From an uncultured Acidobacteriota bacterium (GTDB taxonomy: Bacteria; Acidobacteriota; Thermoanaerobaculia; UBA5066): DNA of 64,000 nucleotides. Below the pieces are notes generated by a model, which did no database searches, was not told the DNA's origin, and saw only the letters and a list, made by a program, of their open reading frames with translations. Position 1 is the first letter of the stretch. Each line of letters starts with the position of its first letter. Positions 35,983 through 38,691 of the stretch are shown here, one piece after another. Position numbers and translations under genes: made by a program. The stretch is from the NCBI GenBank assembly GCA_963836285.1, contig CAWIIN010000002.1, positions 1,650,386-1,714,385 on the forward strand. Direction: 5' to 3'.

Positions 35983-38691
35983 TTAGAAGTTGTGATGGTC
36001 GAATCGGCGCGGGATCCCGCGCTCGTCACGGTACTTGTTCTCCTCGTCGACGGTCGCCTTCTCTTCCTTGTTGTCGAACTGCCTGCCGTCGGCCTGCGTC
36101 GGCAGGGCGGTCGAGTCCTGCTGCCCCTGCACGCCGTGCTCCGTGTGCCCGAGCTCGTGGAACAGGATGTCGTCGGAGGGCACCGTTCCCGGCGGAGTGA
36201 GCGGGTGCGCCGGATCGGGTCCGACCGTCGATGGCTTGAAGTCGGGGTTGTACTGCACCGTCGAGTCGGAGCCGTTCCCGGTGCCCGTGCCCGACGTGCC
36301 CGAGCCGCCGTTGAAGCTCGGGATCCCCTTCTTGGAAGCATCGGCGTCGTTCGAGGAGATTTCCTGTGAATTCGCGCCGTTGTCGATCCGCTCGATGCTC
36401 ACCGAATGACCGGAATTCTCGATCGTGCCGAGTCGGGCCTTGCCAGAGGGCGTCGAGGAGATGGCGCCGAGGTCGTCCAGCACCTTGTCGGTGAATTGCG
36501 GGTCCTTGGACGACGGTTTGATCGTGATCGAGTTGCCGACGCTCACCGAACCGTCGTCGTTGCGGAAGACGCGCGTCGTCTTGCCGCCTCCGATGTCGAG
36601 GCCGGAGCCGTTGTAGACGTTCCAGTGCTTCCGCCCGCCGCCCCCGCCTCCCTTGTACGGCTTGTCGAGGTAACCCGGCTCACCCGTGTCGCATCCGCCC
36701 GCATCCAGCGGCCCGTCGATGTCCGCGACCGGCGCGGGTGGGGCGCCTCCACCGCTGTTGATCTTCGTCAGCGTCCCCTGGATCGTGATTCCCGAGGCGT
36801 CGATGCGCACGAAGCTGCCGCCGACGCGGAAGATCAGCTCGTTGCCGCCGTCGAGCACCATGCGCTTGGCGTTGGCCTCGATGCGTTCCGCACCGACCCT
36901 GATGTCCGCCGCGGTTCCGACCTTGATGTTGCCCTTCGCATAGAGATCGATCTCGGAGTCGACGGCGACGTACCACTTGCCCTTCACGTGCAGGTTGTAG
37001 TCGCCGCCGATGGTGTGAAACTGGTCGCCTCCGACGCTGATCGAGCTCGAGCCCCCGATGCACTCGTACTTGTTCTTCTTGACGCGGACGTCCATCCGCC
37101 GCTGGGACTGGATGTAGATCTGTTCCTTGCCGTAGGTATCGATGAAGCGGAACTCGTTGTAGTCCTGGTAGCCGCCCGCCATCGTGGATCGGGACTTGTA
37201 CGTGGAGTACGTCTGATATTTCGGCAGCTCGTACGGTGGCATGCTCTCGGCGTTGTACACGCTGCCGATGACGATCGGCTGGTCCATGTCGCCTTCGAGG
37301 AAGTCGACGACGACCTCCTGCCCGATGCGGGGGATGTAAATCGCCCCCCACTGCTTGCCGGCCCAGGAGGTCGCGACCCGGATCCAGCAGGAGCTGTCGC
37401 TGTCGTACTTGCCTTCGCGGTCCCAGTGAAACTGCACCTTGATGCGCCCGTACTTGTCCGTGAAGATCTCCTCGCCCGGAGGCCCGACGACGATGGCGGT
37501 CTGGGTGCCATGGACGGTCGGGATCGGCGTGAGCCGCGGCGGCCGGAACGGGAGCTCGGCCGGGAAGCAGGAGAAGCTGTTCCGGTAGGAGAAAGAGCCG
37601 ACGCCCGACCTCAGGTCGGCGGCGTCGTTCGCGACGTGCTCGACCTGGTAGACGATCCAGGAGCCGTCCCCCTCGTAGTGGCGCTCGAGCGAGAACTTGT
37701 GGCCGGAGACGATCTGGCGGCAGTTGCTCGCGGCGTTGACGAGGATGCTCGCCGCGGCCTGCTCCTGCATGCGGATCTCGGCCGTCCGCACGTTGTCCTG
37801 AAAGATGTTCTGGAGATCGCCGGGCCGGTCTCCGCCGCCCGGCTGGATGCCGTCGAAACGTTGCGCGTATCCACCGGGATAGTCGTAGAGCTCGAGCTTC
37901 GCGTTCGGGCCGAGCTTGAGCTTGTGGCTCGCCTTCCCGGCGGCGGTCGCCGCCTGAATTTCGGCCTTTCCCTCGAGGTGCTTGCGCGGCAGCTCGAAGC
38001 TGTGGTCCCAGAGCGTCACCTTGCTCGAGCGCAGCTCCTGGGCCTTTTCCCAGGCGAGGACGCGATCCTCCTCCCGGGTGCCTCCGCCGACGGTCTCGAA
38101 GATGAGCGAACTCTTTCCGGGCACCGAGGGGTGGCTGCCCGGAGCGTTCGCAACCACCATCGTGTGCGAGCCGGCGGCGTGCTTGAAGAAGTAGAAGATC
38201 CCCTCTTCTTCCATGAGGCGGCTCGCGAACGAAAAGTCCGACTCGCGATACTGGACGCAGTAGTCTCGAGGGGGGAAAGCCCCCTGGATCTCCCAGGAGA
38301 CGTCGAGGCCGGCGAGCACCGTCTTGAGGATGTCGGGAACGGAGATCTGCTGGAAGATGCGGCTCTGCGTCTTGCGCAGGAGCAACGAAGCTTCCGGGAC
38401 GAGGTCCAGCAGGTACCGGGTGAACGTGGCGTCCCGCGCACCTTGCGCGACGCGCAGGCACGACCCGTTGAGAAAGCGCGGGCCGCCGCCGGGCAAGGCG
38501 ATCTCGACCGTGATCTTCTGTCCGAGCAGCGCGTCGAAGGCCACCTTCGTCGCGTTCTCGGCGACGCACCGGAGCTGGAAGGAGAACGGCCGCGAGATGG
38601 CCTCGTGTCCCGAGAAGCCGTTCAGAAGGAGAACGTCGGGCCCGAGGGGCGTCGTGATCTTGAGTCGGCGGCCGTCCTGCTTGTAGGCCAC
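35983..38691 (-). CDS. vgrG: Evolved VgrG (TssI) with C-terminal HExxH metallopeptidase-like extension
   Basis: 902 aa, GTG start with GGGAGG RBS. Full gp27/gp5 VgrG core, then a Gly/Ser-rich linker and a C-terminal approx. 120 aa containing DDILFHELGHTEHG. Confidence 0.9.
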   Translation of the reverse strand: MAYKQDGRRLKITTPLGPDVLLLNGFSGHEAISRPFSFQLRCVAENATKVAFDALLGQKITVEIALPGGGPRFLNGSCLRVAQGARDATFTRYLLDLVPEASLLLRKTQSRIFQQISVPDILKTVLAGLDVSWEIQGAFPPRDYCVQYRESDFSFASRLMEEEGIFYFFKHAAGSHTMVVANAPGSHPSVPGKSSLIFETVGGGTREEDRVLAWEKAQELRSSKVTLWDHSFELPRKHLEGKAEIQAATAAGKASHKLKLGPNAKLELYDYPGGYAQRFDGIQPGGGDRPGDLQNIFQDNVRTAEIRMQEQAAASILVNAASNCRQIVSGHKFSLERHYEGDGSWIVYQVEHVANDAADLRSGVGSFSYRNSFSCFPAELPFRPPRLTPIPTVHGTQTAIVVGPPGEEIFTDKYGRIKVQFHWDREGKYDSDSSCWIRVATSWAGKQWGAIYIPRIGQEVVVDFLEGDMDQPIVIGSVYNAESMPPYELPKYQTYSTYKSRSTMAGGYQDYNEFRFIDTYGKEQIYIQSQRRMDVRVKKNKYECIGGSSSISVGGDQFHTIGGDYNLHVKGKWYVAVDSEIDLYAKGNIKVGTAADIRVGAERIEANAKRMVLDGGNELIFRVGGSFVRIDASGITIQGTLTKINSGGGAPPAPVADIDGPLDAGGCDTGEPGYLDKPYKGGGGGGRKHWNVYNGSGLDIGGGKTTRVFRNDDGSVSVGNSITIKPSSKDPQFTDKVLDDLGAISSTPSGKARLGTIENSGHSVSIERIDNGANSQEISSNDADASKKGIPSFNGGSGTSGTGTGNGSDSTVQYNPDFKPSTVGPDPAHPLTPPGTVPSDDILFHELGHTEHGVQGQQDSTALPTQADGRQFDNKEEKATVDEENKYRDERGIPRRFDHHNF
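37010..38691. repeat. Paralogous vgrG 5' segment (copy 2)
   Basis: See copy 1. Similarity extends from the GTG start to about codon 560. Confidence 0.7.

Follow-up and report, generated by a model that had tools for sequence, protein, structure and literature searches.

A VgrG-fused M91 metallopeptidase domain and its candidate immunity partner in an acidobacterial type VI secretion locus

The window analysed here is a 64,000-nucleotide stretch of DNA from an uncultured Acidobacteriota bacterium (GenBank assembly GCA_963836285.1, contig CAWIIN010000002.1, positions 1,650,386 to 1,714,385 of the forward strand), in which a type VI secretion system (T6SS) gene cluster closes with a VgrG spike gene whose product carries a C-terminal M91 zinc metallopeptidase domain. 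The reading that we favour, and consider probable, is that this is a specialised ('evolved') VgrG, delivered by the T6SS, with an M91 protease that is neutralised by a 199-residue protein encoded directly downstream. In the proposed mechanism, the trimeric spike would bear a small zinc endopeptidase of the M91 (NleD/HopH1/Tox-HopH1) type in three copies, each attached by a flexible linker and likely with the Glu-zincin fold of botulinum neurotoxin (BoNT) light chains; contraction of the sheath would push the spike, together with its protease, into an adjacent cell, in which one or more proteins would be cleaved. The partner, a predicted β-sandwich, would protect the producer and its kin by binding the protease and blocking it, and a 181-residue PAAR-like protein probably caps the M91-bearing spike. 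Overall, the locus is a sound, fairly ordinary T6SS toxin/immunity arrangement that employs a known toxin family.

The open reading frame (ORF) at 35983..38691 on the minus strand encodes a 902-residue product without interruption (stop codon at 35983..35985), and its GC content by codon position (0.61/0.45/0.90) is as in a real gene of a ~68% GC genome; a public contig that matches the window exactly across this gene has the same product annotated. The N-terminal 645 residues (36757..38691, minus strand), comprising the gp27-like hub, gp5 OB-fold and β-helix, are a complete VgrG/TssI spike protein, with Pfam matches to Phage_GPD (residues 29-356, 269.8 bits), Phage_base_V (residues 412-479, 57.7 bits) and Gp5_trimer_C (residues 496-602, 66.9 bits), and scores far over the cut-offs of the curated models TIGR03361 (540.8 bits, cut-off 186) and TIGR01646 (401 bits, cut-off 122). 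The extension beyond the β-helix measures ~257 residues, in agreement with the ~250 residues given in a first-pass annotation of this DNA. It begins with a Gly/Pro-rich linker (residues 646-696; 36604..36756, minus strand) running SGGGAPPAP...KGGGGGGRKHW, which includes an IDGPLDA..DTGEPGYLD motif common to other VgrG-M91 proteins. The predicted local distance difference test (pLDDT) score is low where the model of residues 686-902 begins. A linker thus exists, as had been proposed, but it lies here; the Gly/Ser/Thr-rich segment FNGGSGTSGTGTGNGSDS (residues ~792-809) is part of the M91 fold, of which it holds the conserved GTGxG in invariant alignment columns.

The domain that follows (residues 697-902; 35986..36603, minus strand) is an M91/Tox-HopH1 zinc metallopeptidase toxin domain, against which the Pfam profile PF14891 (Peptidase_M91, 'Effector protein') scores 61.6 bits (E 1.6e-16, cut-off 25), with positions 8-173 of its 176 aligned to residues 727-896. 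Its HELGH zinc-binding/catalytic motif (H845, E846, H849; 36145..36159, minus strand), held within DDILFHELGHTEHG at residues 840-853, lies in a predicted helix and is invariant in all 56 related loci that were aligned, as are N885, Y887 and R888. These latter residues belong to a second predicted active-site helix (36028..36066, minus strand) bearing E876/E877 and the [DE]N motif E884-N885-x-Y887-R888, in which only D or E occurs at position 884; of the 56 loci, 48 retain E877 and 40 retain E876. The AlphaFold2 model of residues 686-902, built from 48 sequences, is confident (pLDDT 88.7, predicted template modelling score 0.88) and places the HExxH in a helix at fragment residues 154-169, with a second long helix at 190-206. 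The domain is accordingly predicted to have a zincin α+β fold related to that of BoNT light chains, and the structural neighbours of the model are Glu-zincins. PDB searches with the single C-terminal sequence and with a 7-sequence profile gave no match; the 48-sequence profile gave a marginal match to BoNT-like light chains (PG1, E 3.6e-4). An hhalign comparison with the BoNT/A light chain, which we count as supportive only, aligns the FNGGSGTSGTGTGNGSDS region to TRNGYGSTQY and pairs GxGS..V.YNPDF and HELxH.

The HExxH and the [DE]N of the second helix together make up the exact signature of Tox-HopH1, so a Glu of that helix is the expected third zinc ligand, with E884 or E877 as candidates. 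E884 follows H849 at a distance of 35 residues, just as E262 follows H227 in BoNT/A. A metzincin assignment was rejected, since the sequence after the motif, HELGHTEHGVQG, has no family-conserved third His or Gly pattern and the structural neighbours are Glu-zincins, a class in which no Met-turn is expected. The first-pass annotation had proposed a zincin-like HExxH domain, to be checked for a Met-turn or a third ligand, within a spike-fused metallopeptidase effector. The PF14891 match, invariant motifs and fold model bear out the domain, the check comes down on the side of a Glu ligand, and, with the VgrG models and the T6SS context, the evidence supports the effector, for which we infer the proteolytic activity itself.

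The window domain scores 21.1 bits against NF041347, the model of the XopG/HopH/AvrPtoH type III secretion system (T3SS) subfamily, where the cut-off is 150, and by this measure it is a distant relative of the XopG/HopH subfamily and not a member. Homologues of the C-terminal domain at 30-42% identity are mostly ~300-residue PAAR-M91 proteins of Acidobacteriota, some of which carry the NCBI name 'M91 family zinc metallopeptidase'. A word-indexed homology search from this domain missed the window VgrG and its 898-residue relative, both of which were recovered by contig look-ups and a genome scan.

The partner gene (35321..35920, minus strand) starts 62 nucleotides downstream of the VgrG-M91 gene and encodes a 199-residue, predicted all-β sandwich protein with no export signal. 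Its GC content at third codon positions (0.86), a GGGAGG Shine-Dalgarno sequence 5 nucleotides before the ATG and its calling in public assemblies all indicate a coding gene. The description of this gene as lacking a recognisable family holds in that neither Pfam nor NCBIfam matches it and that Pfam searches at E <= 1 with ten diverse members of its family gave nothing consistent; it is not, however, an orphan. There are 24 close homologues (58-100% identity), and the Pfam-less genes directly 3' of unrelated PAAR-M91 genes prove to be homologues as well (26-35% identity, 61-95 bits). An exhaustive hidden Markov model (HMM) search of 1.84 billion representatives with the partner family returned 266 clusters at E <= 1e-3.

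An M91-domain scan of one genome per GTDB species yielded 53 loci, at which the partner HMM was then searched. These loci fall in Acidobacteriota, Alphaproteobacteria (Inquilinus, Reyranella, Acetobacteraceae), Myxococcota and others, and 51 of the 53 have a partner homologue directly 3' of the M91 gene and in the same orientation, with VgrG and PAAR carriers alike. VgrG-M91 is the commoner architecture, since VgrG is the carrier in 38 of 55 loci scored, the other 17 having a PAAR protein or a short/cut ORF. Two tandem partner copies are present in 6 loci. Pairwise identities of the partner follow those of the M91 domain (r = 0.86, Mantel p <= 0.001), the corresponding value for the partner and the VgrG core being r = 0.63; with mean identities of 29% for the partner and 45% for M91, the partner evolves faster. 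A further homologue, 66% identical to the window copy, occurs at 3252..4007 of a Logan contig (SRR30681564) and has at its N-terminus a twin-arginine motif (RRQFLL) and a lipobox-like Cys; unrelated genes surround it on this 4.2-kb contig, which gives no M91 match, and we take it for an orphan immunity copy that encodes a probable exported Tat lipoprotein. Judged from these searches, the partner is a member of a sizeable unannotated family tightly tied to M91. Its most likely role, as the first-pass annotation had suggested, is that of an immunity protein for the M91 toxin, which is supported by the linkage to M91, the co-variation, the tandem copies and at least one orphan copy.

The partner's export status is less uniform. 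Among the 55 loci, 27 have partners with a hydrophobic, signal-peptide-like N-terminus, 11 of these with a clear lipobox, and a few copies have twin-arginine motifs; the signal-bearing partners are mostly from Pyrinomonadaceae, Bryobacterales and Solibacteraceae, and no Thermoanaerobaculia or alphaproteobacterial copy has an export signal. For the window copy, the reading frame is closed by a stop nine codons before the ATG, which leaves no room for one. The split, with Sec, lipoprotein or Tat signals in about half of the partners and none in the window copy, is left unexplained. The lack of a signal suggests, as a working assumption, that the target is cytoplasmic in the Thermoanaerobaculia-like lineage of the window; it may be, instead, that the target can be reached from both sides of the membrane, or that the partner protects only the producing cell. 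More speculatively, the ~190-residue β-sandwich proteins could be an undescribed immunity family for BoNT-like M91 T6SS toxins, in which switching between lineages from no signal to Sec-lipoprotein or Tat signals reflects targets in different compartments, so that the Thermoanaerobaculia and alphaproteobacterial versions would be the first cytoplasm-acting antibacterial M91 proteases; we regard this extended proposal as possible but doubtful.

The lack of an export signal also bears on two rival explanations. The partner may be an accessory factor, i.e. a folding or loading chaperone or adaptor, a trans-acting prodomain, or a co-secreted effector, roles with which the strict co-location of the family with M91, the signal-less window lineage and weak fold matches to a proteinase inhibitor and to AsaP1 metalloendopeptidase entries would all be compatible. 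However, the known T6SS adaptors (DUF4123, DUF1795, DUF2169) serve cargo effectors rather than VgrG- or PAAR-fused toxins; roughly half of the partners, predicted to be lipoproteins or to be exported by Sec/Tat, would be kept apart from spike assembly in the cytoplasm; and tandem and orphan copies fit immunity better, such that an accessory role seems unlikely to us. It could also be proposed that the M91 domain, in the manner of NleD, HopH1, XopG and TepB, acts on eukaryotes, being directed against protist or fungal grazers, and that the downstream gene has no immunity function. The M91 family was founded on T3SS effectors that act by cleaving proteins of the host, translocation of TepB into HeLa cells has been observed, a survey of Salmonella places Tox-HopH1 among the anti-eukaryotic effectors, and, again, the window partner has no export signal. 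This proposal nonetheless appears improbable, given that a co-varying partner kept in nearly all M91 loci, with tandem copies and at least one exported copy apart from M91, is typical of an antibacterial pair, that the Rhs-M91 protein of Salmonella is antibacterial, and that the match to the XopG/HopH model is so far below its cut-off. A trans-kingdom role is, even so, conceivable.

That the HExxH is incidental, or that the domain is a decayed, inactive appendage, can be given very little credence. The bare HExxH pattern is, it is true, not significantly enriched in the window (5 matches where 1.9 are expected, a count of 5 being reached in 6 of 100 shuffles), but the Pfam score far over its cut-off, the invariant motifs and the confident folded model contradict the notion, raised with the first-pass annotation, of a chance motif without a metalloprotease fold. 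In addition, relatives that share just 47-79% identity in the VgrG core share 84-92% in the M91 domain.

The genomic context is in accord with delivery by a T6SS. A complete T6SS core cluster (39447..59506, identified with Pfam) lies upstream on the minus strand, with TagJ/ImpE on the plus strand, in the order TssK, TssL/DotU, TssM, TagF, two Hcp, TssA, TssC, TssE, TssF, TssG, ClpV, a 234-residue ORF and VgrG-M91, which closes the cluster. The tandem Hcp genes (49751..50248 and 50459..50998, minus strand) differ in their match, the second being more divergent (92.6 versus 146 bits). The 234-residue ORF between ClpV and VgrG-M91 (38730..39434, minus strand) has a good coding signal and an HAVQDSFSPAH motif, with no Pfam, NCBIfam or PDB match; it was rejected as a member of the module because the 55 related loci all lack a homologue.

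Downstream, the order is the 199-residue ORF, the 181-residue PAAR-like gene, a second VgrG, DUF2169, a ~352-residue ORF, a Tox-PAAR-like protein and an AHH nuclease. The PAAR-like protein (34751..35296, minus strand; PAAR_motif, 33.2 bits) has its PAAR fold split by an ~80-residue Ala-rich insertion that is probably helical. At a minimum of 10 acidobacterial VgrG-M91 loci, the gene right after the partner encodes a homologue of it, an arrangement that points to VgrG-M91, partner and PAAR-like gene as a three-gene module in Acidobacteriota. The nearest relatives of the window locus are in metagenome-assembled genomes (MAGs) labelled Thermoanaerobaculia (Acidobacteriota), and the order VgrG-M91, 199-residue ORF, PAAR-like gene, second VgrG is repeated on every Thermoanaerobaculia contig looked up. 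The second spike/effector module (29160..34696, minus strand) includes the second VgrG, of 721 residues, the first ~140 of which have no Phage_GPD match, then DUF2169, the ~352-residue ORF, with a weak ketoacyl-synthase match, the Tox-PAAR-like protein and the AHH-family nuclease toxin.

A comparison with JBBSEG010000001.1, a contig labelled as a Burkholderiales MAG, gives 47% identity for the VgrG core, 84% for the M91 domain and 56% for the partner. This pattern looks like that of a toxin/immunity cassette moving between spikes; either such an exchange has occurred across spikes and phyla, or the contig is mis-binned.

Neither M91/Tox-HopH1 toxins of the T6SS nor metallopeptidases fused to VgrG are new. 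What is added here is the unannotated partner family tied to M91, a dedicated PAAR-like protein in the acidobacterial module and the lineage-dependent export of the partner; a literature search found no paper on a VgrG-M91 fusion or on the partner family. The family is a candidate immunity family for Tox-HopH1, for which the only other immunity protein found to have been described since 2012 is a 110-residue transmembrane protein. M91 proteases are minimal relatives of BoNT light chains, and the presence of the module in 53 species-representative genomes, including that of the cultivable Inquilinus limosus, offers a tractable system in which to seek the substrates of an antibacterial BoNT-like protease. 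The division of the partners into exported and non-exported forms gives a tangible hint as to where M91 toxins act; if immunity signals are indeed switched by lineage, a single toxin family would be used against targets in different compartments.

Tox-HopH1 was listed in 2012 as a polymorphic toxin domain with an HExxH + [DE]N signature and the T6SS among its delivery routes; the table of Zhang et al. 2012 gives no immunity family for it ('-') (PMC3482391). The window domain shares family and signature with the T3SS effectors NleD, HopH1 and XopG, but lies below the XopG/HopH threshold. Tox-HopH1 is, according to the Salmonella survey, among the commonest Salmonella T6SS effectors, and the sole M91 T6SS toxin tested experimentally, the PAAR-Rhs-M91 protein SED_RS06335 of Salmonella Dublin SPI-19, is antibacterial, is neutralised by the downstream SED_RS06340 and has shown toxicity only in the periplasm (PMC8867033, PMC13556075). 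It resembles the window protein in T6SS delivery, C-terminal Pfam M91 domain, HExxH and BoNT-like predicted fold, and in having a neutralising gene downstream, a function that is likely in the window. By contrast, its carrier is Rhs-PAAR and not VgrG; SED_RS06340 is the 110-residue transmembrane protein mentioned above, set apart from the ~190-residue β-sandwich family by description and not by sequence; and its toxicity was seen in the periplasm only, whereas the window partner is signal-less.

Like the window protein, Pseudomonas aeruginosa VgrG2b belongs to the evolved VgrGs and ends in an HExxH zinc metallopeptidase; it is antibacterial and its immunity protein, PA0261, is encoded immediately downstream (Tpe1/Tpi1 family; PMC6899460), the position held in the window by the candidate. 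Immunity proteins of the VgrG2b type also vary, with signal peptide, lipoprotein and transmembrane forms. The window domain was rejected as a member of the VgrG2b C-terminal/Tpe1 family, as no match was found in sequence or fold searches. It has been stated that VgrG2b carries an M91 domain (PMC8867033), but M91 profiles match no VgrG2b chain in the PDB and the original VgrG2b paper does not use the term. The P. aeruginosa PA14 protein Tpe2/TepB (PA14_33970) does have an M91 domain, a T6SS location next to vgrG and a noted resemblance to BoNT; unlike the window protein it is a stand-alone cargo effector, which binds VgrG3, and it has been tied to biofilm formation and virulence, not bacterial killing, with no immunity gene reported (PMC9846239, PMC10442045). 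M91 has been proposed as a minimal relative of BoNT light chains (PMC6367388; PMC9846239), and the features of the window domain agree with this relationship. Compared with BoNT and BoNT-like light chains (M27, ~430 residues; PMC6367388), the window M91 domain, at ~205 residues, is about half the size, and in place of translocation and receptor domains it has a contractile spike for its delivery.
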